Virus record (IMG/VR): IMGVR_UViG_3300043185_000025
DNA: 47,780 nt
From: a virus
Direction: 5' to 3' (one strand)
The notes under the pieces were generated by a model. It was not told where the DNA came from, searched no databases, and worked only from the letters and a program-made list of their open reading frames with translations. Shown in pieces: positions 16,301-47,780 of this stretch; the first letter of the stretch is position 1, and each line of letters begins with the position of its first letter. The translations under genes were made by a program, and so were the position numbers.

Positions 16301-19300
16301 TCGAACCCAAGAATATCCGCCGCCACGTCTGGATCCACGCCGCCTTCTTTTGCCATTATTCCTTTCGGCAGTCGCTTAATAAAATCCTTCCCGTTTCTGT
16401 CATGAACGGATTTAGAATCGAGTTTCATGGGTGGCATGCCATCCGGCAAGTCCGAACCGTCTGGCATCTTCCCGTTTTTAAGGATGGCCTCCGCTATGTA
16501 TCCGTGTTGTTTGTTTAATTCTTCCAACACTTCTGATTTTATTTTATCTCGCTCGTCTTTCCACCACGCTTCTTGTCCGCGGCGAATCTCGTTCATCAAT
16601 TTTTGTTGCAACCGCTCCTTGGCTTTCTTGTTAGCTTCCTCGACGATTCTCCGGTAGGCGGAAAATTCCGCGTCCGACATTCCTACGTCGGCGGGATCGG
16701 TAAACACCGGAATTATTTCATTCTCGCGGTTTGCGTTTTCGATCTCTTCCTCGGTGGCTAATAGCCTGTCCATCACGCCACGAATCTGATCGTTCATCCG
16801 AACGTCAAGTTTCACGGAACGGTACAGATAAACCAACCACGCCCGGAACTTAGCAAACACGCCACGCAGCTCCGTTGAAGGGGATTTTCCTTCCAGGAGA
16901 TAGGCTTCAAAGCCCTTGGCCCATTTCTCGTGGTGCTCTGTTTTAATTTGTTCGCGAGACTCAACCCCAAGCCATTTAAGCGCGGCATCAAAATCGTCTA
17001 TAACGCGCCGTTGATCTTGTGTTAATTTGTCTTCTTCGATGGTTTTAAGATCGCTGTACACATCGCCAAACAACTCTAAGAAGAAGTGCCCGGATTCGTG
17101 CAGGAACGTGGATAAATCTGCTTTTTGGAATAGTTCTATCGTGAACTTACGATCCTGCCCGAACCGAATAGCGCCACGCTTGATGTCCTTCTTTTTCTGG
17201 AATAGGGGTTGTCCCTGCATGACGGCATCGCTCATGGCTTGGGTGATGTCTAGGGAGTGGACACCATAGCCTTTGGCTGGCTCGTCCAATGCCCCAAGCA
17301 GTTCGCCATCTGACATATCGTCAGGAGACTTGGTGCCAGTGAACTTTGATAGCACCGTCTCCCCAACCTTCGCGCCCCACTTCTTCACATACTTGTTCAC
17401 TACCTGCGGGAGCATCTGGTCGTAGAAGGCTTTCATGCCTTCGCCGCCGACTTTGAGGTCGAGGCCGCGCAGTACCCCGGTGTCTTTGCCTGATCCGGTG
17501 ATCTTGTCGGAGACTTCTTTACCAACGAAGTCCTGTATCTCAGACGGAGCTAGGTTCTTCTCGATCTGATTTCCGGTCTTTGGGTATACGAAAATCTGGT
17601 AGCGGTCGCCTTGCTTCTGCCATGTGATGGCTTCGACTTGCTTGCTCAAATCATACCGCGCCGCCTGCTGCTCTCCAGTCGTCCACGCGATACGGTCAAA
17701 GCCGTTCTCAGAGGCATACCGGATCATCCGCTTCATGGCGAGCATGGTCCAGGCTTCGGTTTTGGTGACGAAGGGGGCGGATGGAACCTGTGACGACCTT
17801 ACAATGCCGTCATTTTTTGCCATCTCCTTCTCTAATCCCGTCAGCCATCTTGCGAAATACTCGCGTGCTCCTTTATCGCCATCCACAACGCCCTTGCCAA
17901 CAACACGCTCATGGCCAAGTTTATCTCGTGTTACCCACTGTGCATCGGTCTGAGTGACATCAAATTCTTCCGGGGAATAAACGTGAGGCTTGAAATTTTC
18001 GCCTTCCTTAAACCCTTCCTTCCTCCCCTTCTGCGCCAAGTCGCTCTGCACTTCCTCGATGAACAGGACGCGCTTGCCTTCGGCGTCGGTGCGTTCGTTG
18101 AAGCGAACGTGGGCGAGGATGTTGGGTTCGTCGAAGTGGGAGGAGCGAAAGCCTTTGTTCTGTTTCGACTTTATGTCGCGTATTGGTTTACCAAGTTCAT
18201 CTAAACGCCTAGCTTCTTCAGGAGTTGCTTTCCTAAGGATAATTTCATCGCTTCCATATTTCTGGCGTAACTCTTCCTGATATGCCCTAAATGCATTATC
18301 TGCGTCGATATATTTCTGTTTATCTGATGATGTTTCAGGCAACGTCAGCAACAACTCCCGGTAGTTCTCGCCGCCGGGGAGTTGGTAGGAGGCGAATTTT
18401 GTATTCTGAATAGTATCTAGTTTTTCTCGTATCTCATGCCATTCGGCCATCGCCTTTCCGTATGCGTCCACAGCCTTGCGGGCAGAACCCAATTTGAGGA
18501 GGTCTATTTTTCTTTCGGCGGAGGCGTCACCGGTCGCCGCTTCATAGGCCCAATGCGACAAATTCGCAGAGTCCAACTGCGATAGATTTTCGTGTACATA
18601 GTTCAAGTCAATCTCTGCTATGTCGCGACGACGTTCTGCTCTGTGCAATGCTTCCGCCAGCGCATCACGTTCTGCTTGATTATCACCAAGCGTCATCTCC
18701 TGCACCTGCACACCATTCTGCCGCACAAACTCAAGCACGGATTCCTTGGTGACTTGTCCGGTTTGCATGTCCAGCCATTCATTCAGGCCAGTGGCTTCTA
18801 TCTCGTCGGCTTTTACGCCAGCGAGTTTAGGGATGATGGCTTTCCAGTCTTTGGCTGTGGCCTTTGCTTGTTTGGCGGATTCGATGCCTTTCTCAAGGGC
18901 CGAAAACCAAATTGGTTTCTCACTCTGGAATAAGTAATCCTTCAGAGACCCTTGAAACAATTCTTTCCCTTTCTCTGGATCGGATTGCAGCATCTTCTTG
19001 ATCGCTGCGTTATCCATCTCTTTTACGTTAACCCCCAATGTTCTTAGGTGGTCGTCCAGTTGTTCAATGGCGGCACGAACGTTTAACAGGTCGGCATCCT
19101 GCTTGCCTTGGCGATATACCTTCTTCCCCATCATTTCTTTGGATATGGCTTCGAGCAGAAGATTAGGATCTCTTTCGGAAAGGTACCCATGCTCTACCGC
19201 TAATTCGGCAATATCATCCAGTGTTCGCCCTTTGTCGTTCACCAAACCGACCCTTACTTTTTGCATATCCCTGGCGGACAGCTCTCTACCCTGATCCTTT

Positions 19301-21126
19301 AATCCGCCTTGTTTAACGATAAAATCCAGCAATGACTCTCCATAAACGTCTTTGTCGGTTGGCACGTCACCGGAACGTAACCGATCCAAGAATACGTCCA
19401 GGGCGTCCGTTTTTGCGTGTTTCTCCAACACGTCTGGCAATGGGCGGACGATCCTTAAATCTCCATAACGCTGTTCCAGCAATTTCTGGGCTCGTTCTCC
19501 TCCGGCTTGACCCAACACACGGGAAACAGCAGAGTGGATGGACGCGTAAGCTTCAGCCGTGCTTCGGTCGGTACCAGTAGAAATAAGCTGACCGACAATA
19601 TCTTCACGCACGCGATCCGTTTCTGTGTCAGCATTTATTCCCGATTCTTTGACTAATTCTTTCTCTATTTCTTCGGCCTCGCGTTGGGTCAACTCGTCTG
19701 AGTTGAAGCGAATATCCGGCAGCAACGCTTTCCCATGTTCGGTCGAGGCGAGCTGGGTGGCGTACCGTGACATGGGGATAACGATATCAGTGCCAGCGGT
19801 GATGGCTTCTCGATAGGCGGTTTTCCCAATGATGGATTCGGCGATAATGGCTGGATCGGTATTAACGCTTTGCCAATAAGCCGTCCAACGCTCCACGGGG
19901 ATCATCACGGATTCAGCCGGGGTGCCTTCCACCATGCCCTCGACGTACTTGGCGAAGCTTTCTGGGTCTCGTTGGCGAAGTTTTGAGTTCGCGGCGAGGT
20001 CGTTTATTTTCTCGATAAACGTTTTATTTATTTTAGGTCTTTCCGATTCGTCTTTGGAAACGGCGAGTGCAGCGGCATTTATTCCGCCCGTCAAGACAGT
20101 TTGGGTGATGGTGGAAATTAACGTGGAATAGACCGCGCCGGGGCGTTCTGCCAAGTATTCTCCCCATGTCTTTTCGGGGTTCGCCACAGCAGTGTCGATG
20201 GCGTCCTGAACAAGCGTGGCGACTTGCTCACTGGGAATTTCTCTTGCAAGAAGCCCTGTAAGGAATTTACCTGCCCCAAGTTTCCCAAGGTTCTTAACCA
20301 GGAATCCCATCGGCAGCAATTCTGTTGCGACTTCAGTCGCTCCCTCACCGACGGAACCTAAAGCGGCTTCTCCTGGGGTCGCGCCTCTTGCCCGGTATTT
20401 CCCGTAAGCCTGTGATTGAGCTTCAAGACCCATCAGACCAAGCATGGGGACGGGGCTGCGGGTTGCGATGGACGCCGCCAAACCTGGGGCCGTGCGAGCG
20501 AAACTTACGGTTCCGCCGTAAATGGCCTCTACCGTTTCTGACTCGAATTCCGGTTTTGCCATTTCCTCGATACCGCGAGACTGAAGATACTTTCTGATCG
20601 TGTCCTGTCTGCGAACCTCGGTCTTAGCGGGGTCTTCCTGAATTCCTGGAATACCCACGTCTTGCATCTCAAGTTGCATACTCTTCTTGGTCTGCTTCGC
20701 GCCCTCACGGAAAGAAATGGCGACTCCGCTTAACCAAGAGAAAACACCTGGCGTCGGCCGATACGGTTCTTTCCACTCGCCGAATTCTCGTATACGAGCT
20801 TCCATGTCTTTGAGCGATTCGGTGTCATCGTGGGCGATCTTGGCGAACTCAACGTCTTTAAGACGTTCCGCGAGATAGGGCGAACCTTCCACCAGAAGGT
20901 CGTATTCGTTGAGTTTCTGTTTTTTGGAAACTTCGTCAAGGTTCCGTTCAACGACTTCGAGCGGAATGCCGGTCTTAGTGGAAAGCTTCCTCGCCTGGGC
21001 GACGGATTCAGGGTTCGACTGAATCGCTCGCACGGTGGACGCACGAATCCCCTGAACATCCGACTCTCGTTTTAACGAAGAATCGTATTCGTTTTCGTTT
21101 CTTAATATTTCATCGTATTCGTTCAT
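13339..21126 (-). CDS. Giant internal virion/ejection protein, polyvalent type, with a zincin HExxH motif and C-terminal TM helices
   Basis: A single 2595-aa ORF at the position of T7 gp16. HESGH is encoded at 17086..17100. Hydrophobic helices FMLLMVIPTALSTIGG and LVYSMVMYGAAMIPIV are encoded near 13620..13776. All plus-strand ORFs inside it are short shadows. Confidence 0.7.
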   Translation of the reverse strand: MNEYDEILRNENEYDSSLKRESDVQGIRASTVRAIQSNPESVAQARKLSTKTGIPLEVVERNLDEVSKKQKLNEYDLLVEGSPYLAERLKDVEFAKIAHDDTESLKDMEARIREFGEWKEPYRPTPGVFSWLSGVAISFREGAKQTKKSMQLEMQDVGIPGIQEDPAKTEVRRQDTIRKYLQSRGIEEMAKPEFESETVEAIYGGTVSFARTAPGLAASIATRSPVPMLGLMGLEAQSQAYGKYRARGATPGEAALGSVGEGATEVATELLPMGFLVKNLGKLGAGKFLTGLLAREIPSEQVATLVQDAIDTAVANPEKTWGEYLAERPGAVYSTLISTITQTVLTGGINAAALAVSKDESERPKINKTFIEKINDLAANSKLRQRDPESFAKYVEGMVEGTPAESVMIPVERWTAYWQSVNTDPAIIAESIIGKTAYREAITAGTDIVIPMSRYATQLASTEHGKALLPDIRFNSDELTQREAEEIEKELVKESGINADTETDRVREDIVGQLISTGTDRSTAEAYASIHSAVSRVLGQAGGERAQKLLEQRYGDLRIVRPLPDVLEKHAKTDALDVFLDRLRSGDVPTDKDVYGESLLDFIVKQGGLKDQGRELSARDMQKVRVGLVNDKGRTLDDIAELAVEHGYLSERDPNLLLEAISKEMMGKKVYRQGKQDADLLNVRAAIEQLDDHLRTLGVNVKEMDNAAIKKMLQSDPEKGKELFQGSLKDYLFQSEKPIWFSALEKGIESAKQAKATAKDWKAIIPKLAGVKADEIEATGLNEWLDMQTGQVTKESVLEFVRQNGVQVQEMTLGDNQAERDALAEALHRAERRRDIAEIDLNYVHENLSQLDSANLSHWAYEAATGDASAERKIDLLKLGSARKAVDAYGKAMAEWHEIREKLDTIQNTKFASYQLPGGENYRELLLTLPETSSDKQKYIDADNAFRAYQEELRQKYGSDEIILRKATPEEARRLDELGKPIRDIKSKQNKGFRSSHFDEPNILAHVRFNERTDAEGKRVLFIEEVQSDLAQKGRKEGFKEGENFKPHVYSPEEFDVTQTDAQWVTRDKLGHERVVGKGVVDGDKGAREYFARWLTGLEKEMAKNDGIVRSSQVPSAPFVTKTEAWTMLAMKRMIRYASENGFDRIAWTTGEQQAARYDLSKQVEAITWQKQGDRYQIFVYPKTGNQIEKNLAPSEIQDFVGKEVSDKITGSGKDTGVLRGLDLKVGGEGMKAFYDQMLPQVVNKYVKKWGAKVGETVLSKFTGTKSPDDMSDGELLGALDEPAKGYGVHSLDITQAMSDAVMQGQPLFQKKKDIKRGAIRFGQDRKFTIELFQKADLSTFLHESGHFFLELFGDVYSDLKTIEEDKLTQDQRRVIDDFDAALKWLGVESREQIKTEHHEKWAKGFEAYLLEGKSPSTELRGVFAKFRAWLVYLYRSVKLDVRMNDQIRGVMDRLLATEEEIENANRENEIIPVFTDPADVGMSDAEFSAYRRIVEEANKKAKERLQQKLMNEIRRGQEAWWKDERDKIKSEVLEELNKQHGYIAEAILKNGKMPDGSDLPDGMPPMKLDSKSVHDRNGKDFIKRLPKGIMAKEGGVDPDVAADILGFESGDKLLLELAGLRPKKALAEAETDKRMEERYGSMLLDGTIQAEATEAVLSDHRYKVIDAEIKALRKRVREVKPYVKAEQNKQRDERRRGLAMLTVPMASQSVVKQMADGVIAQKRIRDIRPDGYLMAIRRAAKEAVKLAGKGDYQGALMEKQRELLNLELYRSANDALDRIEKGKEYLSKFDKKSVRDKMRGEAVNQIDDLLSRFDLRRRSLKAIDAERETLEQFVKNESDRLAAVTPDLPGFIKNETYRKNYKDLSVDEMTGLVDSVKQLERLARREQEQYLAIRQMNFEQERGTVLDRIRQFHPEAFEQVNGVWVAKKQAPDRIPTISKAAETLGDKGAGEFLNSETILNLLEGGDYGDVERSLFGRMSDRSNWKATKLAEIYKKLKPLFKAYGLAERRQFARKDIGTDIGIPVTRENAVVVALLYGNKEGRERLMNYGWSAAQIKQIIALLDEKDLRLVDGIWKLFDEDLWPELKDLNERTRGKAPPKVEPISYQTKHGPARGGYFRLKYDTDLSERAHHFDESQAVQAILGGSLGMTAKTNQGTSEQRQEGVKLLPRLDLGVFSETVNETVHDLAYREAVADTMRMLNDKEVQNAIKTAAGIPAYRTLVTRVREVAAPPRNPTGFIEKTLSIARKNTIVTLLSGARTALLNITGVASVYARSFEKESPVSAALLTRELGKFFSWRMNEMYEFATSHSEYMRHRFNNYDRDLQDMARKLTVNGKILPDTYQFLWLMGMTDRAVTVPIWNASFAEGMKRYKNDPKQAVEYADHIVRQTQGSGRDVDLPKIMSGHGGYGQLKKVFTMFQSYSNAQLGQLIRAKAISAKEAKENRTMAVSKFTARFMLLMVIPTALSTIGGREDDDLDDEDWFKKLVYSMVMYGAAMIPIVRDLSAYAWSLFDKDIANYGLKISPVQSAGEGLGKGAVSLVDIVSGEGDKKDTKNLIMGISYAVGLPGKQISDTVLGAEAFLQGEAGPEAVVFGPD

Positions 21127-32089: not shown

Positions 32090-33705
32090 TTGTGTCTCCT
32101 ATTGTATCGTTGACTATGAATTATCCTTGGTTGATGGTTCGTCTGGGCTTTATCGCGCCATTGCTTTCCGTCCGTTAAGTATGTCGGGCCAATACTCCAC
32201 GATATAACTATTGCATCACCGCGATCCGTGGATCTGCCCAGTCGTTCGCAAACATCCTCTTTCGGCTCTACTTTAATGCCGTTTGACGTTATCTCGAACG
32301 TCGGCGCGGTTAGATCGGCGACTAACTTTGGATCGTCTGGTAATGCGATGGGCGATCCCACGGGCTGTGATGGGTCCAGCGCTTCGCGAAATCTCCAATA
32401 AACTTCCGACCGTTTGTTTGTAAACTTCAATTGACGGTCATTAGTTCGGTTAACTGATTGTTCGGCGCCTTTGTGGGCTCTAACCTCAACGTCATTTGCT
32501 TTGAGATGCTCGAACGTTGCGCCTCCGTAACCGCCGCCCATGTCGATCCCAACGATGGCCTTGTCGCGACGATTCTTGACCACCAGCGCGGCAACATCAG
32601 TTCCATACGGAGTATCGCGTCCAGGAACAGCGATTAATGGTGGGAACCAACCGTCAAATCTTGGCGCCAAAACCGTTTCATCATCCCCCCCTTGAGCAGG
32701 ATCAACGCCAATGGCACACATTGGCACGGAGTCCGGTGGCCTCGGCGTCCAGCGTGCTTGCGCTTGTTTAATCCAATCAGTCGGGATCACCTGATTTTGG
32801 GCATCTTTAAATGCGGTTCGGAATCCACCCAACAATAAAGACCTGTAGGGCTCGGGCAACGCTTCCAATTCGCGCGCATAATCGGTTTTGGCGTAGTACG
32901 GATTATCCTCAACCGAAGCTGGAATATAAGTATAGGATTTAGGCCGATAAGATTTCCCGTTAATTGTTACGGGGCTACTGCTTTTTACCCATGTTTGCTT
33001 GCCGTGCTCGTCCGAGATTGCCCAACGCAGATCCCCTGGCTTGGCAGGATCCGGGTATTGCGGGTCCAGCCACGGAGCAAACATTTGTATCACCCATAGA
33101 CCTTCCGCAGTTAGTGGGGGATTTGTGGCAAGAACGGTGCGCACCCGTTGGCCTTCTTCTTCCGTTCGGTTCCATCCCATCAGGAATCTAACCTGAGATT
33201 CGGCAAAGTGAGTGGCTTCGTCGATGCCCAACAGGTCTCGCCCTTTGCCCATCCAACTTTGCTCGTCTCCAACCCTGTGAGCGGCGCCAAAATCAATCAC
33301 CCGTCCATCATCTGTTTTAAGCTGAGGCGGGGGTGAACCATTGAAACCCTCTCGGCCACCGTTTATTTTCAGGGCGTCTTCGACTAAACGGCCGATGTCT
33401 GAATATTTCCGGCGCAATAGCAAGGTTCGTTTATGGGAATTGAACGCAAGCCCGAGCAATAGCTGGCTCTTTCCACCGCCGGGCTCGCCTCCGTACAACA
33501 ATACGTCAGCCTCGCTTAAATACGCTTCGGTTTGCGGACCAGGATTTGGAATCCAGCGATAATCTTTGGTGTTGGTATACGCTTCTCTAACTGCCGTGTC
33601 TTTATCCTTGGGCGGCAGAGAAACGTAACGATCCAGAACCTCATCAAGACTGATGGATAGCATTAAGAAATGATTCTCCGTGGTCTGCGCCGTTACCCTT
33701 TGCAA
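32086..33705 (-). CDS. terL: Terminase large subunit
   Basis: Walker A YGGEPGGGKS, Walker B LLGIDEATHF, coupling motif VLATNPP, and the C-terminal nuclease-like segments CAIGVDPAQGGDDETV and RGDAIVISW. The start may instead be M15 (33663). Confidence 0.8.
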   Translation of the reverse strand: MQRVTAQTTENHFLMLSISLDEVLDRYVSLPPKDKDTAVREAYTNTKDYRWIPNPGPQTEAYLSEADVLLYGGEPGGGKSQLLLGLAFNSHKRTLLLRRKYSDIGRLVEDALKINGGREGFNGSPPPQLKTDDGRVIDFGAAHRVGDEQSWMGKGRDLLGIDEATHFAESQVRFLMGWNRTEEEGQRVRTVLATNPPLTAEGLWVIQMFAPWLDPQYPDPAKPGDLRWAISDEHGKQTWVKSSSPVTINGKSYRPKSYTYIPASVEDNPYYAKTDYARELEALPEPYRSLLLGGFRTAFKDAQNQVIPTDWIKQAQARWTPRPPDSVPMCAIGVDPAQGGDDETVLAPRFDGWFPPLIAVPGRDTPYGTDVAALVVKNRRDKAIVGIDMGGGYGGATFEHLKANDVEVRAHKGAEQSVNRTNDRQLKFTNKRSEVYWRFREALDPSQPVGSPIALPDDPKLVADLTAPTFEITSNGIKVEPKEDVCERLGRSTDRGDAIVISWSIGPTYLTDGKQWRDKAQTNHQPRIIHSQRYNRRHK

Positions 33706-34525
33706 CCGGTATCGGTACAGAATCGGTGACGGTAGTTTGTGTCTGCGTTGGTATAGGCAGGTTGAACAGAGCGTTAAACTCCGTCACCGAAGCTTCAGAA
33801 CGATCATGGATCCAGGTGCCCATCACGTAATTCAGATCGTCAATGGCGCCCTGTAAAAAGCTCTGGTTGATTCGCGCGGCATCGGCATCGCGGATCGCTT
33901 GTTGCATCCTAGATTCTAGCTCTTTTTTTCGTGCCATTAACTTTATGTGCATATGATTGTGCTCACAAACACCGTACAGTGGCGGCGGCAATAACAAGTC
34001 GGATTCCGGCGGAACGGCAATCGTAATGCCAAGTTGCTGGGCAATTTGGATGAAATGGATGCAGCCGGGCCTTTGCTGGGCCCATTCCTCGGTCGCGGCC
34101 ATGTCCACGCCCCACAGACCGATAACCGGCGATGTGCGGTCGCCGCTGGCACGGGCCAGTAATATTTCGTCGATTGCCATCGCCAACATCCATGCAATCG
34201 AGGATGTGAAAAAATAAGAACCGTATTTTGCGGTTAGTCCGGCAACGTCCAACTTCACTGCTCCGTGAATTTCCGGCACTGGATCAACCATCACGACGCA
34301 CTGTTGCCTTGCCATCCACGCGCAATATTCTGGCGAAAACCACGGGACTTGGGTATCGGGCTTACCGATTACGCCAGGCTCCCAGCGGTGTAACTCAAAA
34401 AATTTGTCACACCTTGGAAGGATTGGGTAGGTGCCGGGACTGCATGCCCAGATTTTGAACGTCGGATCGCCAAACGGCGCAAGCCGGATGCTGGACGGGG
34501 CGCTGCCAATTATCGCAATACGCAT
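33644..34525 (-). CDS. Rossmann-type protein, possibly a DUF115/MptE-like (Maf-type) glycosyltransferase
   Basis: Start refined to MRIAIIGSAPSS (TAATG coupling). The motif FTSSIAWMLAMAI...VIGLWGVDMA resembles the G-x-D core of DUF115/Maf-family enzymes as I recall them. The family assignment is unverified. Confidence 0.3.
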   Translation of the reverse strand: MRIAIIGSAPSSIRLAPFGDPTFKIWACSPGTYPILPRCDKFFELHRWEPGVIGKPDTQVPWFSPEYCAWMARQQCVVMVDPVPEIHGAVKLDVAGLTAKYGSYFFTSSIAWMLAMAIDEILLARASGDRTSPVIGLWGVDMAATEEWAQQRPGCIHFIQIAQQLGITIAVPPESDLLLPPPLYGVCEHNHMHIKLMARKKELESRMQQAIRDADAARINQSFLQGAIDDLNYVMGTWIHDRSEASVTEFNALFNLPIPTQTQTTVTDSVPIPVAKGNGADHGESFLNAIHQS

Positions 34526-35016
34526 TAGGTTGTACCGTTGAGAGCCATTTCCGTCGAGCACGCCGAAGAAAAACCAGTTGGGCGGCTAACAATTGCGTAG
34601 ATCGCGCTAGACACGCCGATTAATTGCAGGAACAACCCGCCACCCTGAGCCACGATTGTGGTAGTAGTAGAATTAGCGCTGGTGCGTAACGCAAAACTGC
34701 TGTCGGATCGCTTAATTGTGCGAATTCCGGTTGAAGTTGAACCCGTGTACAGCAGTTTACTTACACCAACAATCGGTGGATCCAGCAACCAGGTGTCGTC
34801 CGTTGACGTATCGACGGTGGTCAGACCGTAGGCCGTAATATTTGTTGCGGTAGTATCGGAAGTGGCGGCCTGGACCTCGAGCACGGCACCATGAGGCGAC
34901 TGAATCCCGTCTGGACCCACCAAATATTCAATTTGGGCGCTTGATCCCTGGGCAAGGCCCAAGCGGCGACCGTGAACTGACGTGCGAATTTTGCTGCGTA
35001 ATGTTTCTCTGCTCAC
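34525..35016 (-). CDS. Ser/Thr-rich hypothetical protein
   Basis: 163 aa with S/T runs (ATSDTTATNITAYGLTTVDTSTDDT and TSANSTTTTIV). Co-oriented and coupled to the downstream gene. Confidence 0.5.
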   Translation of the reverse strand: MSRETLRSKIRTSVHGRRLGLAQGSSAQIEYLVGPDGIQSPHGAVLEVQAATSDTTATNITAYGLTTVDTSTDDTWLLDPPIVGVSKLLYTGSTSTGIRTIKRSDSSFALRTSANSTTTTIVAQGGGLFLQLIGVSSAIYAIVSRPTGFSSACSTEMALNGTT

Positions 35017-35089: not shown

Positions 35090-35455
35090 CTATCGTTTCC
35101 AAAACTCCACCGTAACGATCCCGGAAGTTGGTGATACCAGGGAAAATCCAGTGCTTGTAGCTGTGCTACCCAGTTGATAAAACTGGGAATCGTTTCCGTG
35201 AATGACGTGATTGATGCTCGTGGTGGCAGTAGTTGCGGCCATCGACGTGCTTGGCCACGTAGCGCTGGTTGAATGGAAATTTACGGCAAACGAATAAGCG
35301 GCTCCAGCCGTGGTGGCGCCACTCAATCGCATCACATTGGCGCCAGAAGGCCAGTCGAAAGCTTGACCTGTATTAGCTGCCAATACCGCCGTAGCCACCG
35401 TATCGGCTGGCATAGGGATTAAAAACGATGGGTTCCAGGTTCCGAACGTTCTCAA
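35090..35455 (-). CDS. Ser/Thr/Ala-rich hypothetical protein
   Basis: TTG start with GGAG 7 nt upstream. Contains the S/T run STSATWPSTSMAATTATTS. Confidence 0.45.
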   Translation of the reverse strand: MRTFGTWNPSFLIPMPADTVATAVLAANTGQAFDWPSGANVMRLSGATTAGAAYSFAVNFHSTSATWPSTSMAATTATTSINHVIHGNDSQFYQLGSTATSTGFSLVSPTSGIVTVEFWKR

Positions 35456-36002: not shown

Positions 36003-36088
36003 TAAATATTTCCGTAAGTCATTGAATCTACAAAATCTCTACTAAAGAAAAAAACAAATTAAACAAAAAATACACTATAGAATTCAAA

Positions 36089-36103
36089 AGTGTTAACGAA
36101 AAA
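36089..36103 (-). promoter_or_regulatory. Conserved 15-mer (minus strand ATTTTTCGTTAACAC), copy upstream of the late operon
   Basis: Identical to 28888..28902. Lies about 90 nt upstream of the terS-like start. Confidence 0.45.
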
Positions 36104-36114
36104 TAGTTGTTGTG

Positions 36115-36174
36115 GTGACAATCTACGTCACATTGTGACAATTTTTGGTAAATAAGTGACGCATTACATCACTT
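36115..36174. promoter_or_regulatory. Cluster of GTGAC/GTCAC operator-like repeats in the AT-rich switch region
   Basis: GTGACAAT occurs at 36115 and 36135, with GTCAC at 36127 between them. AAGTGA-9 nt-TCACTT forms an inverted repeat at 36154..36174. Confidence 0.45.
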
Positions 36175-36330
36175 GTGGATAACTGTATTTCTTATTTATC
36201 AATAGTTTAACTGTTGGCATGCGTGCTGCATTGTATTGTGTGTAGCACACAACAACCAGACGCGGTTATAGTATCCGGTAGTTATAACTTCCGATTTGTC
36301 AAAAAAAGATTGATTCATGAGGCGCTAAGC

Positions 36331-36468
36331 ATGTTTAATGCATTAATTCTATTACTATTAATGACTCTTTCGGGCTGTGTGATCGGCGAGCTGCATTTGT
36401 TGTCCGTGCAGTATACCGATGCTTCAACTAATACTAAATCTTCTTGCACAAAGAATAACAATAAATAG
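36331..36468 (+). CDS. Small lipoprotein (45 aa) on the opposite strand
   Basis: Internal start of track ORF 36214..36468. It begins MFNALILLLLMTLSGC, with lipobox LSGC. GAGG lies 9 nt upstream. The surrounding DNA is AT-rich. Confidence 0.45.
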   Translation: MFNALILLLLMTLSGCVIGELHLLSVQYTDASTNTKSSCTKNNNK

Positions 36469-36471
36469 CTT

Positions 36472-36753
36472 CTACAAGCTTGAAAACTCTATAAATCTCT
36501 TCTCTGTCAATTGCGTTCCGCATACTTTTGCGTGCAAAATCAATAGCGCATGGCCGTCTGCAAATCTGGGGGAACAGCCGCGCATAATCCCTTGGAAACT
36601 CGACCATCCTCTTCCAATCGCCTCGGCCTGTTTTGAGTAGGGATAATCCCTCTGTTTCATATCCTCAATTATTGTTTTCCAGTCTATCTTCAACGGGACG
36701 ATATCAATGTGAAGTAAATAACTGTAATCACTTGATTTTGCGGTGGTGTGCAT
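36472..36753 (-). CDS. Hypothetical protein, possibly Ner-like HTH
   Basis: Starts 1 nt after the synthase stop. The segment DWKTIIEDMKQRDYPYSKQAEAIGRGWSSFQGIMRG loosely resembles Ner-type HTH proteins. Confidence 0.45.
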   Translation of the reverse strand: MHTTAKSSDYSYLLHIDIVPLKIDWKTIIEDMKQRDYPYSKQAEAIGRGWSSFQGIMRGCSPRFADGHALLILHAKVCGTQLTEKRFIEFSSL

Positions 36754-36754
36754 A

Positions 36755-37747
36755 TCAGCCGGTGAAAGAACTCTCTATTGGACTCCCAGCTTTTATCAAT
36801 TTCTTGGCCTTGGATCCCAATATTTTACGGTAATCTTTTGGATGAGCCCCCTTCGCGGGGCGTCTCAAGCCGGTATTCGACGTTGTAAATAATTCCCCGG
36901 TGTGAATATCTTGTAGGGCGTACACGGATCGGCGCAACTCGAATGAGTTTGACTCAGAATTTGACAGACCGTATTGGACCTTTCCGCAGGCGGCAGCGAC
37001 GGATTGAACTCCAACAACCATCTGCCAAAATGTCTCGGCATCTGCCGCGAAATGACTGTCTGGACCAACTTCCGAATCCAGCCGTAAATGCTTTTCTATC
37101 ACCGTGGCACCGAGCGCCGTGGCCGCCATCGGCACAACGACCCCACGGGTATGGTCTGACACGCCTACGCGACAATTAAATCTTTCACGCATATCTGGAA
37201 TTGTCAGCAAATTGTAGTCGGATGCGGACGCCGGGTAAGCCGATACGCATTTCAACAATGTGACCTTTTTTCCGTACCCCTCACAAATATCAAGAGCCGA
37301 AGCTATCTCCGCTACGGATGCCATTCCTGTCGAAAAGATAAGCTCTTTTCCAGTTTTGGCGACTGATTCTATTAGCTCAAGATCAGTCAGCTCAAAACTT
37401 GCGATCTTGTACCGGGCACAGCCCAAGCTCTCAAGAAAATCCACCGCTTCTTGAGAAAAAGGCGACGAGAAGCACTCAATCCCTGAATCCTTGGCGGCCT
37501 GGAACAATGCCCGGTGCCAGGCTAACGGCAAGGCGGCCTCTTGATAGAGGCTGTACAAGTTTTTCCCTGACCAGGGACCGTTCTTGATAACGTAATTTTT
37601 ATCCGCCACCATCGAATCGGGTGTAAAGGTTTGTAGTTTTATGGCGTTTGCGCCGGAACGGGCGGCGGATTCGATCAGCCTCATGGCACGATCTAGGTTT
37701 TGATTATGGCTAGCGCCCATTTCGGCAACGATAAATGGCGCCATCAT
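36755..37747 (-). CDS. pseI: Nonulosonic acid synthase (NeuB family, most likely pseudaminic acid synthase)
   Basis: FIVAEMGASHNQNLDRAMRLIESAARSGANAIKLQTF, KIASFELTDLELI and VGVSDHT, plus a C-terminal SAF-like tail. The neighbouring genes are pse-type. Confidence 0.8.
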   Translation of the reverse strand: MMAPFIVAEMGASHNQNLDRAMRLIESAARSGANAIKLQTFTPDSMVADKNYVIKNGPWSGKNLYSLYQEAALPLAWHRALFQAAKDSGIECFSSPFSQEAVDFLESLGCARYKIASFELTDLELIESVAKTGKELIFSTGMASVAEIASALDICEGYGKKVTLLKCVSAYPASASDYNLLTIPDMRERFNCRVGVSDHTRGVVVPMAATALGATVIEKHLRLDSEVGPDSHFAADAETFWQMVVGVQSVAAACGKVQYGLSNSESNSFELRRSVYALQDIHTGELFTTSNTGLRRPAKGAHPKDYRKILGSKAKKLIKAGSPIESSFTG

Positions 37748-38194
37748 CTATAGCTCATAAATAATTTGTTTTTGGGTAAACCCAAGCTTTTCGAACAATT
37801 TGATTGATCTTGAATTCTTTGGGTTTATGTTAGCAATAAAACTCCCGCTCCGTTTCCCCTTCGTTTCTGGAAGGGGAGTATGGTTCTGAACCAAGGCAGC
37901 CACTGACTTAAACCCAAATCCACGGCCACGCGCCTGATTAAAAATAAAAACCCCAATCTCGTTGAGCTTCGTCAGATAACAGGTACCAACCGGCGAACCT
38001 TGGTTGTAAACCAAGTACCAATACCGATACGGACGCTTTGCCACGTAAGCAACGTGTTCGGCCCACGTTGGTAACAATTTGTGACTAATGTTAACGTTCT
38101 GATCTTTCTCCGAAGATCGCTCCCTTAAAATTTCGTACAAAATCTTCTCTGCTTCCGGAACTAAGTAAATACTTCTTAGTTCAACTTCGCTCAT
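37748..38194 (-). CDS. GNAT N-acetyltransferase (PseH-like role plausible)
   Basis: Acetyl-CoA motif region QARGRGFGFKSVAAL and C-terminal NPKNSRSIKLFEKLGF. ATGA-coupled. The DNA is visibly more AT-rich than its neighbours. Confidence 0.6.
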   Translation of the reverse strand: MSEVELRSIYLVPEAEKILYEILRERSSEKDQNVNISHKLLPTWAEHVAYVAKRPYRYWYLVYNQGSPVGTCYLTKLNEIGVFIFNQARGRGFGFKSVAALVQNHTPLPETKGKRSGSFIANINPKNSRSIKLFEKLGFTQKQIIYEL

Positions 38195-38931
38195 AATCTG
38201 ACCTCCACGCCGTTATCGCGCAAATAGCAAGCAACCGTTTTCGGGGTTTCTTCGGTAAAGGCAAACATTGATCCAATGGCCACGGCGGATGCTCCAGCAT
38301 GGATGGCTTCGAGCGCATGGCTAAGCATACCGCAGCCGCCGTGGGCGATGACAGGGATATCCACCGCACCGCTAACCTTGCGTATCAATTCTAAATCAAA
38401 TCCATTCATCGTTCCTTCTCTTTCAATAGAAGTAAGAAGTATTTCTCCTGCGCCACTTCGCTCCAATTCTTTCGCCCATCCCACGGGATCGAACCTAGAT
38501 AATTTTTGTCCACAATGGGTATAAACACCCCTGCCTTTCACATCCAGCGCGGCAACAACAGCCTGCTTTCCGTATTTCTCCGATATATCCTCAATCAATC
38601 CATCAAAAGCTTTTGATCCAACAGCTATTTTATCTGCTCCGGCCTCGAACAATTTTTTCGCGTGCTCGAACTTTGATATGCCGCCGCCAATCGTGAGTGG
38701 ACAAAAACAATTAGTTGATAAATCAAATGCCGTCTTGTAATCAGGCTCTCTTCCCTCTGGGGTGGCCGTGATGTCCAGCATAATCAACTCGTCCACGCCG
38801 CGTGAATTGTGGATTAACACAGCCTGCCGGGCATGCCCAATGGAGCGCCACGACGAGAATTGTTTTCCCTTAAAAAGCTGCGCCCCCCTATAAAGCAGCG
38901 TGGGAATAACTCTTTTTGCCAGGCCCATCAA
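38191..38931 (-). CDS. HisF-like (beta/alpha)8 cyclase subunit of the WbuZ/flagellin-glycosylation-island type
   Basis: KRVIPTLLY...GVDELIMLDITAT...LTIGGGI...GADKIAVGS...GAGEILLTSIEREGTMNGFDL...IPVIAHGG all align with HisF hallmarks. Confidence 0.75.
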   Translation of the reverse strand: MMGLAKRVIPTLLYRGAQLFKGKQFSSWRSIGHARQAVLIHNSRGVDELIMLDITATPEGREPDYKTAFDLSTNCFCPLTIGGGISKFEHAKKLFEAGADKIAVGSKAFDGLIEDISEKYGKQAVVAALDVKGRGVYTHCGQKLSRFDPVGWAKELERSGAGEILLTSIEREGTMNGFDLELIRKVSGAVDIPVIAHGGCGMLSHALEAIHAGASAVAIGSMFAFTEETPKTVACYLRDNGVEVRL

Positions 38932-40006
38932 ACTCCTTCAACAAAGGTCTTCCGTTTTCCACGCGACTGAACAAATCCCAATTCGTGAAACGATCCAGGA
39001 TTGAAATTAATTCGTCGCGAGTAAGGCCAATCGCTGACAATCCTTCTTTCATCAGGACGCCCGAATAATACCCGGTCAGCAATCCATCCCTGTCCGCCAC
39101 AATATCGAGTGCCTCGGCACGGTCTATTAATCCGTAACGGATGTCCACGGACAACTGCGCGGCAAGCCTGCCATAGCCAAATTTCCGATAGCAGGCGTGA
39201 TCGTGGATTAAGGTTTGCCAGTTATCCAAGTTTTCATGCGCCCACCAGTTAGCCAAGCTTGGCAAGCTCTGCTTCATCCCCGCTTCTCGGGCGATCTTGG
39301 CGTTTTGGTGGGAATCCCACGGAATGTATTGTCCCAAGAAATGGGCCTCTACATTTCCAATGTCGCGGGGAAACTGATAACTCTGCATATCAGACTCTGT
39401 GATCCCTTCGAGACCGACGAAATCGGACGGACGAAGGCCCAAAAAACCACCAAATTCCATCGTCCATCTTCGATCCATCTTTCTATTGTCTTCGGAACCG
39501 GGCGGGCCACCGTATTCTCGTTGCGGGGATTCCCCGTAGAAAATAAGATTTATCCCGAGCGCCTTAGCCATGCGAAAAGGAACAGAAAATATACTCGCGT
39601 GCTCCGGCCAAGATATGTCGCCAACCAGCTCAAGCCCTAGACGATTAAGTTTTGATCGAATCCGTCTATTCGGTGTTACCTCGATGGTAGTAGCGAACTT
39701 GGCCAGGTTATCTATGTTGGCCCTTCCTATGGCCGTCAGGTGGCAGGTGCTGGCCGTTATCACGGTTACGTCGGCACCAAGTCCAAGCAGTGTCAAAACC
39801 TGATAATGGCTGTCCTTGCCGCCGGAGCACGGGACAATACAACGGCCTTGATGCTTCTCTAAGAGGTTCAGCAGCTCCTGCTTGCGGGAATCCCAGTCTA
39901 TTTCTGGCCGGGCTTTGTAGGCGCGGCAAGCGGAGCATTCTCCGGATTCGTCGAAATGCAAATCTGGTTTAGTGTCTGGCAGGAGACAGGTTCGGCAGCG
40001 TCTCAT
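38888..40006 (-). CDS. pseA: N-acetyl-sugar amidotransferase (PP-loop ATPase; PseA/WbpG/WbuX family)
   Basis: N-terminal Cys cluster CRTCLLPDT...CSACRAY followed by the PP-loop CSGGKDS. Confidence 0.7.
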   Translation of the reverse strand: MRRCRTCLLPDTKPDLHFDESGECSACRAYKARPEIDWDSRKQELLNLLEKHQGRCIVPCSGGKDSHYQVLTLLGLGADVTVITASTCHLTAIGRANIDNLAKFATTIEVTPNRRIRSKLNRLGLELVGDISWPEHASIFSVPFRMAKALGINLIFYGESPQREYGGPPGSEDNRKMDRRWTMEFGGFLGLRPSDFVGLEGITESDMQSYQFPRDIGNVEAHFLGQYIPWDSHQNAKIAREAGMKQSLPSLANWWAHENLDNWQTLIHDHACYRKFGYGRLAAQLSVDIRYGLIDRAEALDIVADRDGLLTGYYSGVLMKEGLSAIGLTRDELISILDRFTNWDLFSRVENGRPLLKEFDGPGKKSYSHAAL

Positions 40007-40080
40007 ATCTTTCTTAGATCGACCTTATGGCTTTTAAACGTCTTACGAATAAGATCGTGCCACTCAAATATTTCTTTCAT
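40003..40080 (-). CDS. 25-aa micro-ORF bridging the methylase and amidotransferase genes
   Basis: It translates to MKEIFEWHDLIRKTFKSHKVDLRKI. Its TGA overlaps the pseA-like ATG (ATGA), and its ATG lies 1 nt after the methylase TAG. Confidence 0.25.
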   Translation of the reverse strand: MKEIFEWHDLIRKTFKSHKVDLRKI

Positions 40081-40081
40081 A

Positions 40082-40660
40082 CTATTTCCTCAGTAGCCAG
40101 TAACTGATCCCGTTCGCATCAAACCCGCTCCCTTCGCCAAGTAAACCGTATTCCACCAGAGTAAGCCCCATTTCTTCGTACAATTTTCCATAGTTCCTTT
40201 TCCAAAGCTTCCCGGCATGGCCTCGATACTCTACCTCTGTCTCTTCTGCGGCTTCGTATTCAACAGCAAGAACGTAGTCACAGCTTGCGTCTACGATGCG
40301 ACGCATGAAGGCTTTTAGGTCTTGGGGGGCGATGTGGATGAGGACGCCAGATGTGAAAACCAATTCGGTACTTGCTGCGACAAAGTTTCTTGGAATCAAA
40401 ATAACGTCTAGTCCTGCGGTTAGTGCAATCCATATAGCGGATTCGTTCACGTCTTCCCCAGCTACCTGTACATGGTCGTTCTCGTACCTGATGGCCGAAA
40501 GGTTGTACCCAACATTGCAACCAACCTCGTACACAGACCGAGCGCCGGTTTTCTCAATGATTTTGTTCCAAAAAGGAACACGACTCTTCCACATGAAACG
40601 ATTCCTAGCGGTGTATTGATTACCGAATTCTCCTTTCCAAAATTCAACGGTATTGTTCAT
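40082..40660 (-). CDS. SAM-dependent methyltransferase (pseudaminic-acid-biosynthesis-associated methylase type)
   Basis: Start refined to MNNTVEFWKGEFGNQY. SAM motif I is VYEVGCNVGYNL. It resembles the Pse-associated methylase family as I recall it (TIGR03587). Confidence 0.6.
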   Translation of the reverse strand: MNNTVEFWKGEFGNQYTARNRFMWKSRVPFWNKIIEKTGARSVYEVGCNVGYNLSAIRYENDHVQVAGEDVNESAIWIALTAGLDVILIPRNFVAASTELVFTSGVLIHIAPQDLKAFMRRIVDASCDYVLAVEYEAAEETEVEYRGHAGKLWKRNYGKLYEEMGLTLVEYGLLGEGSGFDANGISYWLLRK

Positions 40661-40661
40661 T

Positions 40662-40976
40662 TTACAAAACCTCGCTAAGAATAGTGTCCACAACTTCAAC
40701 CGCTATCTTCCCCGGTGGCCATCGCTTGTCGGTTAAATCGCGGATAATGTGCGACGCCCTTGTTATTAACATGGTTCTCTTCTGTTCGCTCAGAATACTT
40801 TTTTTGTCGTTCGGCACAATTCCGTAGTGGCAATAATATGCAGCTCGGGCAATGCTTTCGGCCAACTGCCTGGCAGTCTCCGGATCAATCACAATTCGGT
40901 TACATTCCGCCGTGGTTTCCAGCACGACGTTTCCATCGTGGTCGCTAACGCTAAGTCTTGTATTCGTGGGGGTCAT
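40662..40976 (-). CDS. Hypothetical protein within the sugar island
   Basis: 104 aa. ATGA-coupled upstream, with its stop 1 nt before the methylase ATG. No motif recognised. Confidence 0.5.
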   Translation of the reverse strand: MTPTNTRLSVSDHDGNVVLETTAECNRIVIDPETARQLAESIARAAYYCHYGIVPNDKKSILSEQKRTMLITRASHIIRDLTDKRWPPGKIAVEVVDTILSEVL

Positions 40977-41320
40977 TCAAAAACGGTCATCTTTGACAGA
41001 TCTAGATAGCGGAACCAACGGGCACAGTCCCAAACGGGAAGCGGATCCAACTGATACTCGCCGATCCATTCTTCATCTCTAAAAATGACGCCAGCACCGG
41101 CATTCATAACAGACATGGGAACGGATACATAAGTGCGTTTCGGTATCTCAATAGAAATGGTCGGAATAGGCGCAAAAGATTTTCCGCCTTTACCCCACAA
41201 GCACCACGCGCATGCCAGCATCAACGCCGTCGTGCAACTCGTCGTCGTCACGGCATACTTTGCGCCGGTATATTCACACAAAGCCTGCTCGAAATCTTTG
41301 ACAACTTGGTATGGATTCAA
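40973..41320 (-). CDS. DegT/PseC-like aminotransferase N-terminal fragment (115 aa; remnant or repurposed domain)
   Basis: VVKDFEQALCEYTGAKYAVTTTSCTTALMLA and IEIPKRTYVSVPMSVMNAGAGVIF match the first third of DegT-family enzymes. The ORF ends before the PLP-lysine region. The TTG start overlaps the pseB-like TGA (TTGA). Confidence 0.5.
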   Translation of the reverse strand: MNPYQVVKDFEQALCEYTGAKYAVTTTSCTTALMLACAWCLWGKGGKSFAPIPTISIEIPKRTYVSVPMSVMNAGAGVIFRDEEWIGEYQLDPLPVWDCARWFRYLDLSKMTVFE

Positions 41321-42159
41321 TGGATACGCCCCAATCCTTCACGAATTTCGTCGACTGTCATGCGTCTGGCGGTGTCGCTGGAAATCATCGAGTCCATTGA
41401 TTCGTGCTTCTTCTCGAACACACCAAGACCGATTATCTTCATCTTAGCTCCCATTGCTTCGGCTAAATCCCCAAGCCTGAACGCGGGAAGTTCTGGTATT
41501 TTGAGTTCGCCGCCTTTCATTGTCTCAATGGTGCTGAGAACTAAATCAACGGCCTCTTCCACTGTCATCCAAAATCGCGTTACGTCAGGATCTGAAACGG
41601 GAACCGTGTCACTGTGTTTTAGTATCTGCGTCCACACGGGCAAAACGGATCCTGTCGATCCAATCACGTTCCCGTAGCGTACACAAGCGAACAATGGCCC
41701 ACGAACCCCCCTCGTGTTATTCGCCGCAAGGATTAATGATTCGGACATAGCTTTGCTATGTCCGTAGGCAGACACCGGAGAAAATGCCTTATCGGACGAA
41801 AGTCCGACAACTTTTTTAACTCCCGCTTCGGTCGCCGCTTCAATAACATTGATCGTACCGACGACATTGGTACGAACCATCTCTGTCGGATTATAAAAAC
41901 CAGTTTGGATTCTTTTTAGGGCAGCAGCGTGAACGACTACATCTACACCATCCATCGCGCGACGTAATCTATCTTTGTCGCGGACACAACCAACAAAATA
42001 TCGTGTGCGTTCATTTTCCCCAAATTCACGCTCCATCAAAGCGTGCTTGTGTTCGTCCCTTGAATAAATGCAGATTCTTCCCGTATTACCTAATAATAAA
42101 TTTTTTACCAGAGCCTTCCCAAAATACCCAGCACCACCAGTTATCAATATTGAATTCAT
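41317..42159 (-). CDS. pseB: UDP-sugar 4,6-dehydratase of the PseB/FlaA1/CapD extended-SDR type
   Basis: ILITGGAGYFG, IYSRDEHKH, FVGCVRDKDRL, HAAALKRIQ, SSDKAFSPVSAYGHSKAMSE, VRYGNVIGSTGSVLP and VTRFWMTVEEAVDLV. Confidence 0.7.
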   Translation of the reverse strand: MNSILITGGAGYFGKALVKNLLLGNTGRICIYSRDEHKHALMEREFGENERTRYFVGCVRDKDRLRRAMDGVDVVVHAAALKRIQTGFYNPTEMVRTNVVGTINVIEAATEAGVKKVVGLSSDKAFSPVSAYGHSKAMSESLILAANNTRGVRGPLFACVRYGNVIGSTGSVLPVWTQILKHSDTVPVSDPDVTRFWMTVEEAVDLVLSTIETMKGGELKIPELPAFRLGDLAEAMGAKMKIIGLGVFEKKHESMDSMISSDTARRMTVDEIREGLGRIH

Positions 42160-47385: not shown

Positions 47386-47428
47386 CGCTCAACTGGACGG
47401 GCCTGACGGCCCGCCAGTTAGCTTGCCG
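47386..47428 (-). promoter_or_regulatory. 43-bp intergenic hairpin element, copy B
   Basis: Exact match to 85..127. Lies 8 nt after the stop of 47436..47705 and 22 nt before the ATG at 47364. Confidence 0.6.
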
Positions 47429-47435: not shown

Positions 47436-47705
47436 TCAATACCGACCGCCATCTTTAAGATCATCAACTGGGTTTATCTTTTGCAGCTTCGTTACTGCTG
47501 CCTGGTCCAGAGCCCTATCCAGCGCCGCGTATGCTTTCCCCGCAGCATCCAAGTCCCAGCAGCCTCGGCCCGGCGCGTTGTCGTTCCAGTGGTGAACCTT
47601 CAAAAACTTCTTTGCCTGCATCGCGGCCTCAATAAGCGCGTTCAGGTCTCGCGCTTCTTTCTCTCCGGGTCGGTCAAATCCAAACAGTTCTTTGTATCCG
47701 CTCAT
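47436..47705 (-). CDS. Hypothetical protein
   Basis: GAAGGAGG RBS. 89 aa. Its start and RBS fall inside the terminal repeat. Confidence 0.55.
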   Translation of the reverse strand: MSGYKELFGFDRPGEKEARDLNALIEAAMQAKKFLKVHHWNDNAPGRGCWDLDAAGKAYAALDRALDQAAVTKLQKINPVDDLKDGGRY

Positions 47706-47780
47706 TTCCTTCCTCCTTCATGCAACGCCCAACAACACGCTCAACTGGACGGGCCTGACGGCCCGCCAGTTAGCTTGCCG
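47654..47780. repeat. Terminal direct repeat, right copy (identical to 1..127)
   Basis: Direct comparison of both ends of the window. Confidence 0.9.

Follow-up and report, generated by a model that had tools for sequence, protein, structure and literature searches.

Pseudaminic acids (Pse) decorate the flagella, pili, capsules and lipopolysaccharides of many bacteria, and are recognition sites for phages. In Campylobacter jejuni and Helicobacter pylori, UDP-GlcNAc is converted by PseB, PseC, PseH, PseG, PseI and PseF to a CMP-activated 5,7-diamino nonulosonate, of which an acetamidino variant (Pse5Ac7Am) is formed with PseA. The WbuX/WbuY/WbuZ proteins of the Escherichia coli O145 O-antigen and the AglX/AglY/AglZ proteins of archaea are likewise acetamidino modules, and bacterial and archaeal modules of this kind normally include a glutaminase. 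Here, a cluster of nine genes, most of them of Pse type, is described at positions 36472-42159 (minus strand) of the virus genome IMGVR_UViG_3300043185_000025, the whole 47,780-nucleotide (nt) stretch of which is referred to as the window. As in the C. jejuni and H. pylori pathway, these genes correspond to a route from UDP-GlcNAc to an activated nonulosonate with an acetamidino branch: the phage PseI, PseA/WbuX and methylase pass their family profiles, the dehydratase is nearest to H. pylori PseB, and related phages also encode PseF. Comparison with these relatives, among them the contigs L002, L003 and L089, argues that the island has long been passed down within a phage lineage and is not a recent patchwork acquisition from bacteria. 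The window probably holds a damaged local copy of this clade-conserved module, whose retained genes would depend on a host for PseC, PseG and PseF.

Families were assigned using NCBIfam profiles with curated equivalog cut-offs, together with Pfam. All nine open reading frames (ORFs), and a micro-ORF of 25 amino acids (aa), that had been listed in a preliminary description of this DNA were confirmed on the minus strand as one tight, co-oriented block, with junctions of -4, -4, +1, +1, -4, -44, -4, 0 and +1 nt in gene order from PseB to orf93. The assignment of the block to a Pse-type pathway with an acetamidino branch was also borne out, with three products above their cut-offs and two more having the expected family as best match. 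The pseudaminic acid synthase PseI (36755..37747, minus strand; 329-330 aa, two start variants) contains NeuB (PF03102) and SAF (PF08666) domains, scores 398 bits with TIGR03586 (cut-off 340) compared with 278 bits for the NeuB model (cut-off 400), and holds every residue that is invariant across a 12-sequence PseI alignment. The PseA/WbuX-type PP-loop N-acetyl-sugar amidotransferase (38888..40006, minus strand; 372 aa) scores 209 bits with TIGR03573 (cut-off 203), contains an SGGKDS PP-loop and an N-terminal Cys-rich motif, and is 58-59% identical to its counterparts in L003 and L089. The Pse-associated S-adenosylmethionine (SAM)-dependent methylase (40082..40660, minus strand), 192 aa long from its ATG or 205 aa from an alternative TTG start at 40699, scores 123 bits with TIGR03587 (cut-off 112).

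The first gene of the block encodes a short PseB-type UDP-GlcNAc 4,6-dehydratase (41317..42159, minus strand; 280 aa). TIGR03589 (PseB) was its top match, at 302 bits compared with 193 for FnlA and 67 for LegB. The score falls short of the PseB cut-off (408) for want of the final ~55 positions of the profile: the match covers positions 5-268 of 324, and 269-324 are absent. Residues 23-279 match H. pylori FlaA1/PseB (2GN4, E 1e-67), again with the C-terminal ~55 residues absent, and the sequence contains SSDKA and YGHSK motifs, corresponding to the catalytic D-K and YxxxK of short-chain dehydrogenases/reductases (SDR). Orthologues in the relatives are 276-310 aa long and 52-63% identical; the 280-aa protein is the normal form of the phage clade and not a truncation. 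The HisF-like barrel of WbuZ/AglZ type (38191..38931, minus strand; 245-246 aa; PF00977) matched TIGR03572 best (245 bits, cut-off 300), ahead of AglZ/HisF2 (232 bits) and HisF (206 bits), with all three scores below the cut-offs. The small GNAT acetyltransferase (37748..38194, minus strand; PF13302 and PF00583) reached 16 bits with the PseH profile TIGR03585 (cut-off 93). It is 47-52% identical to its homologues in L002 and L089 and always lies between WbuZ and PseI, and it is a candidate PseH by this conserved position beside PseI.

A scan of IMG/VR with an alignment of PseI sequences identified 178 viral contigs that encode a PseI relative, while a scan with the single PseI sequence returned no relatives. 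Eighty of these loci were fetched, and across about 45 of them, all from the same phage clade, the same gene order was found: PseB, DegT, (small protein), PseF, methylase, WbuX, WbuZ, GNAT, PseI. Past PseI follow small-terminase variants, two small proteins, a protein designated p305, the large terminase TerL, portal and capsid, and the module is thereby placed between early/replication genes and small-terminase/packaging genes, on contigs of up to ~56 kb. Both borders of the island are syntenic in the independent relatives L002, L003 and L089, which excludes the assembly chimerism considered in the preliminary description. In phages with 56-90% identity to the window in capsid, portal and terminase, the island proteins have 31-67% amino acid identity; for L089 the values are 90% for capsid, 77% for TerL, 71% for portal and 31-67% for the island. 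Among the 30 fetched loci that have PseB, WbuX and PseI together, DegT, WbuZ and GNAT are each present in all 30, the methylase in 28 and PseF in 27.

Because the genes are orthologous and stand in the same order and place in phages that share structural genes, the comparison points to an old module of the phage lineage. The closest PseI proteins outside this genome, those of L002 (55%) and L003 (51%), are on phage contigs that share its structural genes, and the closest bacterial PseI is only ~51% identical. In a rough neighbour-joining (NJ) tree most PseI sequences of the phage clade grouped together, apart from bacterial PseI; the exception was the pair formed by the window and L002, which grouped with non-clade viral sequences. 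Neither absence of the island from close relatives nor a near-identical bacterial donor, as a recently acquired moron would lead one to expect, was found. The higher AT content of the GNAT gene was confirmed, its GC content being 42.5% where the island has 48.4% and the genome 50.2%, and orf93 and the flanking spacer are also AT-richer. The mosaic acquisition proposed on this basis did not hold up: all 30 loci have an orthologue of the gene at the same position, which makes it a member of the island, not a recent insert, and the whole block is shared with related phages.

Two steps of the module are damaged in the window. The DegT/PseC aminotransferase ORF (40973..41320, minus strand) encodes 115 aa, matching positions 31-98 of the 380 in the PseC profile only, compared with at least 202 aa (mostly 202-231) in all other loci. 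More than 200 proteins of 196-202 aa of the same half-size kind were found in public data. In the alignment, the intact mini-DegT proteins show an SFHxSK motif with the pyridoxal phosphate (PLP) lysine, the WDSAR aspartate and RFDGR, and their profile aligns to ArnB residues 42-107 and 156-264. Superposition of an AlphaFold model (pLDDT 96.6, pTM 0.92) matched it to the PLP-binding domain of sugar aminotransferases, among them PseC (2FNU; E ~1e-10, TMq 0.73, TMt 0.41). As modelled, the mini-DegT of the clade (~205 aa) is a half-size, single-domain DegT protein in which the PLP lysine is kept. In the window copy, PVWDCARWFR is followed directly by YLDLSKMTVFE; ~93 codons, including the SFHxSK lysine and RFDGR, are gone in frame, leaving the last 11 codons and a 4-nt overlap with orf104. 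The N-terminal remnant is 65% identical to intact homologues, and no trace of the missing half was found elsewhere in the window by tblastn with the full DegT of a relative. Thus, the 115-aa DegT piece noted earlier is real, but it derives from a ~205-aa protein by an internal in-frame deletion and is not a random fragment. PseC is a PLP-dependent aminotransferase with a Schiff-base lysine, and the 115-aa product lacks the segment with this residue. A second 115-aa DegT protein (P0258) was considered as a case of the same deletion and rejected, as its truncation is of frameshift type and its contig has many split genes.

The second loss concerns the cytidylyltransferase gene pseF. In L002, L003 and L089, PseF (TIGR03584, 154-174 bits) lies between the small protein and the methylase, and at this site the window has a 1-nt junction between orf104 and the methylase gene. 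No remnant of pseF was found in the window using tblastn with the L089 protein, and no CTP_transf_3 hit was present in the genome. Judged against the sequences of the relatives, the loss of pseF and the broken pseC are derived, window-specific losses. The preliminary description had treated the incompleteness of the set as a design, with some steps carried and the activation step left out; this is contradicted by the retention of pseF in 27 of 30 loci and of a DegT protein of at least 202 aa in all others.

That the set is incomplete was nevertheless correct: Pfam searches of all called genes, extra scans and, for PseF and DegT, tblastn detected no PseG, PseF, HisH or intact PseC elsewhere in the window genome. 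Domain hits likewise revealed no PseG-like hydrolase, no GATase/HisH-like glutaminase and no glycosyltransferase domain in the window or in the L002, L003 and L089 contigs, and the unassigned island ORFs of L002 had no family match. PseG is specific to the Pse route, and HisF-type barrels are able to use free ammonia. Neither PseG nor HisH having turned up among the relatives inspected, the hosts of these phages would most simply be ones that already make Pse and supply PseG, and perhaps HisH. Use of the sugar for DNA hypermodification was set aside, with no hydroxymethylase, glycosyltransferase or polymerase domain hit among the called genes.

In the usual module, UDP-GlcNAc would be converted to a 4-keto-6-deoxy sugar, then to a 4-amino sugar and a 2,4-diacetamido sugar. 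UDP would be removed by PseG, which was not found in any clade member inspected, condensation with phosphoenolpyruvate (PEP) would yield Pse5Ac7Ac, and PseF would convert this to CMP-Pse. Conversion of one N-acetyl to an acetamidino group would draw on free ammonia or on the HisH of the host, and methylation would be likely. In a pse+ host, the retained PseB (entry), GNAT, PseI (condensation) and PseA, WbuZ and methylase (decoration) would raise flux and shift the product to an acetamidino/methylated form, and the window phage would tolerate the additional loss of PseC and PseF through host supply; like the chemistry and the complementation by the host, any benefit to the phage is presumed. 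With the PLP-lysine half of the aminotransferase and pseF gone, the window phage is therefore unable to make or activate Pse alone. A working role would need host enzymes, which makes rewiring of a host pathway, as first suggested in the preliminary description, the most economical reading. A clade member of the P0207 type, reduced to GNAT and a NeuB domain, fits piecemeal loss where the host can complement.

Several points weigh against a damaged module complemented by the host. The pse genes of the host are an assumption, and the activity of the half-size aminotransferase is a prediction. PseB, WbuZ and GNAT score under their equivalog cut-offs, so that their exact substrates are drawn from context, and no Pse transferase was recognised in the genome. 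The absence of PseG and HisH across the clade is based on the domain hits of three relatives and on clustering of island ORFs, rather than on a profile scan of every locus, and the in-frame deletion rests on assembled contigs. Finally, the two lesions may mean that the module is dying in this phage.

The destination of the sugar was considered with respect to p305 (33644..34525, minus strand), a clade-conserved protein encoded directly upstream of TerL and a weak candidate for a sugar transferase. It is found between the module and TerL in every clade member fetched. It has more than 1,174 homologues, none of them named and none with a Pfam domain, and no Pfam hit was obtained in 50 members of the family. 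An AlphaFold2 model (pLDDT 88) shows a Rossmann-like domain followed by a 47-residue helix, with weak Foldseek matches to thiamine pyrophosphokinase (probability 0.98, E 1e-2, TM 0.3-0.4) and to a 685-aa phage 'MptE-like' protein (E 9e-3). Neither of two profile searches of the PDB returned a significant match; a sialyltransferase seen at E 1.4 from one alignment did not recur with the other. Microcystis phage Mvi-Yong1342-1 encodes a homologue, annotated as a 'type 11 methyltransferase', next to terS/terL and likewise directly upstream of TerL, and this phage gave no match in the PseI and WbuX searches. An assignment of p305 as a CstII/GT42/Maf-type Pse transferase, based on motifs picked out by eye (IAIIGSAPS, FFTSSIAWMLAMAI and IGLWGVDM), was rejected in view of the Pfam and PDB null results and the weak fold matches, leaving a low-probability candidate. 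With matches this weak and a homologue in the Microcystis phage, glycosylation of the virion through p305 is speculation. Two Ser/Thr-rich small proteins (163 and 121 aa; 34525-35016 and 35090-35455, minus strand) are encoded between a small-terminase-like gene and p305; they are kept in 18 and 12, respectively, of 27 clustered clade loci and have no family match.

Decay of an unused module would also account for the two lesions, the aminotransferase core and pseF being the first inactivating hits and the rest being intact for lack of time. The lesions are independent and strike steps that 27-30 of the 30 related loci keep, reduction goes further still in other clade members, to GNAT and a NeuB domain, and a DegT remnant that is still 65% identical is what a recent deletion would leave. 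Such a relic is nevertheless unlikely, as both deletions are clean, the one in DegT being in frame with the last 11 codons and the orf104 overlap preserved and that of pseF leaving a 1-nt junction, and the seven remaining recognisable genes are free of frameshifts and stops and keep the PP-loop, the SDR D-K/YxxxK, the GNAT RGRGFG and the invariant PseI residues. Useless DNA, moreover, is usually purged fast from phage genomes. Alternatively, CMP-Pse might be made, or topped up, in the cytoplasm and O-linked to virion proteins, possibly the Ser/Thr-rich neighbours, by p305 with its thiamine pyrophosphokinase- or MptE(Maf)-like fold. The module abuts the packaging/structural block with p305 between it and TerL, and the p305 model is confident, with thiamine pyrophosphokinase and MptE-like proteins as best folds. 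An MptE-like domain occurs in the Maf transferases that attach nonulosonates to flagellin, and pseudaminylation of flagellin by Maf takes place in the cytoplasm, as does virion assembly. Conversion of the host surface is also less attractive for a phage in which no integrase, and for which no prophage relatives, were found. Decoration of the virion is still doubtful, given that every p305 match is weak (TM 0.3-0.4), that the Pfam and PDB profiles were null and that the Microcystis phage has a p305 homologue and no PseI or WbuX match. In a bolder version, the clade would make CMP-acetamidino/methyl-Pse by a size-reduced route that dispenses with PseG and HisH, p305 would pseudaminylate the phage's own virion, and the window phage would be a two-step knockout that borrows PseC and PseF from its host. 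We consider this combination decidedly unlikely; if true, it would provide the first nonulosonate-glycosylated phage particles.

Two further explanations concern the product and the origin of the island. The dehydratase and half-size aminotransferase could make some other UDP-4-amino-4,6-dideoxy-hexose while PseI and PseA use a host-derived substrate, giving two functions side by side. This would agree with the scores of PseB, GNAT and WbuZ below equivalog cut-offs, with profiles that do not separate PseC from LegC or other aminotransferases, and with the lack of a PseG to link the two halves. We consider it highly improbable, since the best match of the dehydratase is the inverting PseB type (302 bits, compared with 193 for FnlA and 67 for LegB; 2GN4), the nine genes travel as one block in 27-30 of 30 loci, and PseF, PseI and the TIGR03587 methylase are all Pse-specific families. 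The least probable explanation is a recent mosaic island, or moron, of bacterial origin on a temperate phage that converts the surface glycan of its host in the manner of serotype-converting prophages. Its gene content is indeed similar to that of bacterial loci for flagellin glycosylation and O-antigen, the AT content is higher in GNAT, orf93 and the flanking spacer, and prophage-borne enzymes that modify Pse are known for Acinetobacter capsules (PMC12053666, PMC6586298). Dozens of related phages, however, have these genes in an identical order, with 31-67% identity, and phage PseI sequences lie mostly apart from bacterial ones in the rough tree (with the window and L002 as the exception), the nearest bacterial PseI being ~51% identical. 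No integrase domain was found in the complete genome by Pfam searches of all called genes and extra scans. Of 185,579 species genomes, one gave a hit to the clade marker p305, on a 4.3-kb contig of a metagenome-assembled genome (MAG); the search used only two peptide patterns, and distant prophages could be missed by it. The lack of an integrase and of close prophage relatives argues against lysogenic conversion, and the lysogenic, serotype-converting behaviour envisaged earlier is thus not supported. A clade-conserved module that is damaged in the window and complemented by the host is, in our opinion, the explanation to be preferred.

The remaining ORFs of the island are small. The small protein encoded by orf104 (40662..40976, minus strand), whose gene comes after that of the aminotransferase in the clade, is conserved, with homologues in L089 (67% identity), L003 (38%), L002 (28%) and others, and has no Pfam, NCBIfam, PHROG or PDB match. 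The micro-ORF (40003..40080, minus strand), which bridges the methylase and WbuX genes, begins 1 nt beyond the stop codon of the methylase gene, and its last 4 nt are shared with the start of WbuX. It is present as described earlier and lacks conservation: L002 and L089 have unrelated ORFs (42 and 68 aa) at this place, and in L003 the two genes leave no gap. It probably encodes no gene product of note. Downstream of PseI, orf93 (36472..36753, minus strand) encodes a small protein that is conserved in relatives, with 56% identity to p100 of L002 and 69% to L089, and belongs to a family found in at least 8 loci; it had no family or PDB match, and its sole weak match was to phrog_17493, a family with no assigned function. 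No family, PHROG or PDB match was obtained for p284 and p183 of L002, or for the Ser/Thr-rich proteins f8 and f12.

Variants of the module were observed among the relatives and in other viral contigs. In L002 (3109-3630) and L089 (~1660-2000), the mini-DegT ORF has a Cys-rich N-terminal extension of ~170 aa with an LDRINNDGxYEPxNVRWAT motif. On inspection by eye, the extension resembles a module of homing-endonuclease type that has entered between pseB and pseC; that of L002, the only one scanned, gave no Pfam hit. The clade member with P0207 (ENA contigs of 46,756 and 28,512 nt) has only GNAT and a 284-aa NeuB-domain protein that lacks SAF, and these genes are interleaved with genes for a single-stranded DNA-binding protein (SSB), a RecA-dependent nuclease and an N6/N4 DNA methylase. 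Two viral contigs, L032 and L061, have a different order (WbuX, WbuZ, methylase ... GNAT, PseI, PseB, DegT) and a portal that is only ~30% identical; PseF was not found within the fetched range of either, and they may represent a second phage lineage with the module. PseI-like synthases with 42-46% identity were also present on putatively viral IMG/VR contigs binned as giant-virus MAGs (L017, L018, L022, L028, L033, L036, L046, L051 and L077), some of which have PseB-like and DegT-like genes near PseI.

The window is a complete circular assembly, in which bases 1-127 are repeated at 47654-47780 (a 127-nt end overlap), giving a unique length of 47,653 bp. The same contig is present in the Logan assembly of SRR13020435, and an identical p305 protein is encoded on a 47,847-nt JGI contig. 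Nearly every gene of the window phage is on the minus strand, and no tRNAs were found in the genome. Podophage-like hallmarks include a T7-type head-tail connector (PF12236), a tail protein (phrog_376), a major head protein (phrog_3437/PF19821), a large terminase and a 2,595-aa virion protein, and the clade is a large one of uncultured, probably virulent podophages. The 2,595-aa ORF (13339-21126, minus strand; PF18834 LPD22; phrog_9880, E 6e-300) takes up one sixth of the genome, and its product is presumably an internal or ejected virion protein. No near-identical DNA was found among GenBank phages by megablast, and identity of the portal to those of pelagiphages is no more than ~30%.

Three other regions of the genome were distinct. 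A 43-nt direct repeat with a GC-rich hairpin (CTGGACGGGCCTGACGGCCCGCCAG) is present at 47386-47428 and 47738-47780, 352 nt apart and near the circular junction. Just downstream of the island, an AT-rich gap (36003-36471; 33.5% GC) contains the region's only plus-strand ORF (36214-36468). From an internal Met at 36331 this ORF would encode a 45-aa product with a lipobox-type signal, beginning MFNALILLLLMTLSGC..., and it is preceded by a sigma-70-like site at 36115-36142 (plus strand). It could be a small lipoprotein moron, and tblastn with L089 proteins gave no counterpart of the gap. Three small plus-strand ORFs (~101, 51 and 87 aa) at 3170-4444 stand out against the otherwise uniform minus orientation; they have no domain hits and no integrase nearby, and the block looks like a divergent regulatory region.

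A phage lineage with a near-complete pathway of Pse5Ac7Am type points to an undescribed viral use of nonulosonates, perhaps as a coat of the particle or as a change to the surface of the infected cell. An aminotransferase of ~205 aa and a PseB of 280 aa, apparently operating in the absence of PseG and HisH, would be useful for minimal enzymology and for chemoenzymatic synthesis of Pse. The window phage, with its two deleted steps, constitutes a natural experiment on which steps can be returned to the host. It also calls for caution in annotation, as the 'incomplete pathway' of one phage can be a lineage-specific loss and not a design.

Comparison with described systems places these genes among known families. 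In mycobacteriophages, virion glycosylation involves recognisable glycosyltransferases and common host nucleotide sugars. An analogy with these phages, whose glycosylation by phage glycosyltransferases is mentioned in PMC11256854, is possible if Pse ends on the capsid or tail, but the window clade differs in encoding the sugar pathway itself and in having no recognisable transferase. The PP-loop amidotransferase of the phage is paired with an adjacent, co-oriented HisF-like barrel as in WbuXYZ and AglXYZ; unlike in those modules, a HisH-like WbuY/AglY was not found in the window or in the relatives inspected, and ammonia would come from the medium or from host HisH. Phage proteins that bind Pse are known, such as FlaGrab (PMC7099621), and pseI has been listed as a marine phage auxiliary gene in a review (PMC6359870). 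As in other viral nonulosonate auxiliary genes, host-like sugar genes are carried by a virus and partial sets imply reliance on host steps, whereas the window clade has a conserved nine-gene operon with an acetamidino branch and size-reduced enzymes. Only three PseI-like hits, at less than 30% identity, were found among GenBank phages, no WbuX homologue was present in 50,697 GenBank phage records, and literature searches returned no description of a phage-encoded full Pse pathway.

In Acinetobacter baumannii, the Pse of the capsule is modified by prophage enzymes, namely epaA/epaB for 8-epimerisation (PMC12053666) and 4-O-acetyltransferases (PMC6586298). Here too, phage-borne genes alter the nonulosonate variant displayed, but the A. 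baumannii prophages are integrated and provide one or two tailoring enzymes that act on a host-made sugar, whereas the window clade consists of non-integrating podophages with a near-complete route. Compared with the C. jejuni and H. pylori pathway, the genes are phage-encoded, PseB lacks the last ~55 residues, PseH is assigned by position only, no Maf-type or other transferase is recognisable, and no PseG was found in the relatives inspected. PseC of the relatives is a ~205-aa PLP domain, which is broken in the window, where PseF is also lost. The families are known, as is their chemistry, which is that of bacterial flagellin and O-antigen loci; what differs, besides the absence of PseG and HisH from the relatives inspected, is the non-integrating podophage that carries them and the reduced form of the enzymes, with a short PseB and a half-size PseC.

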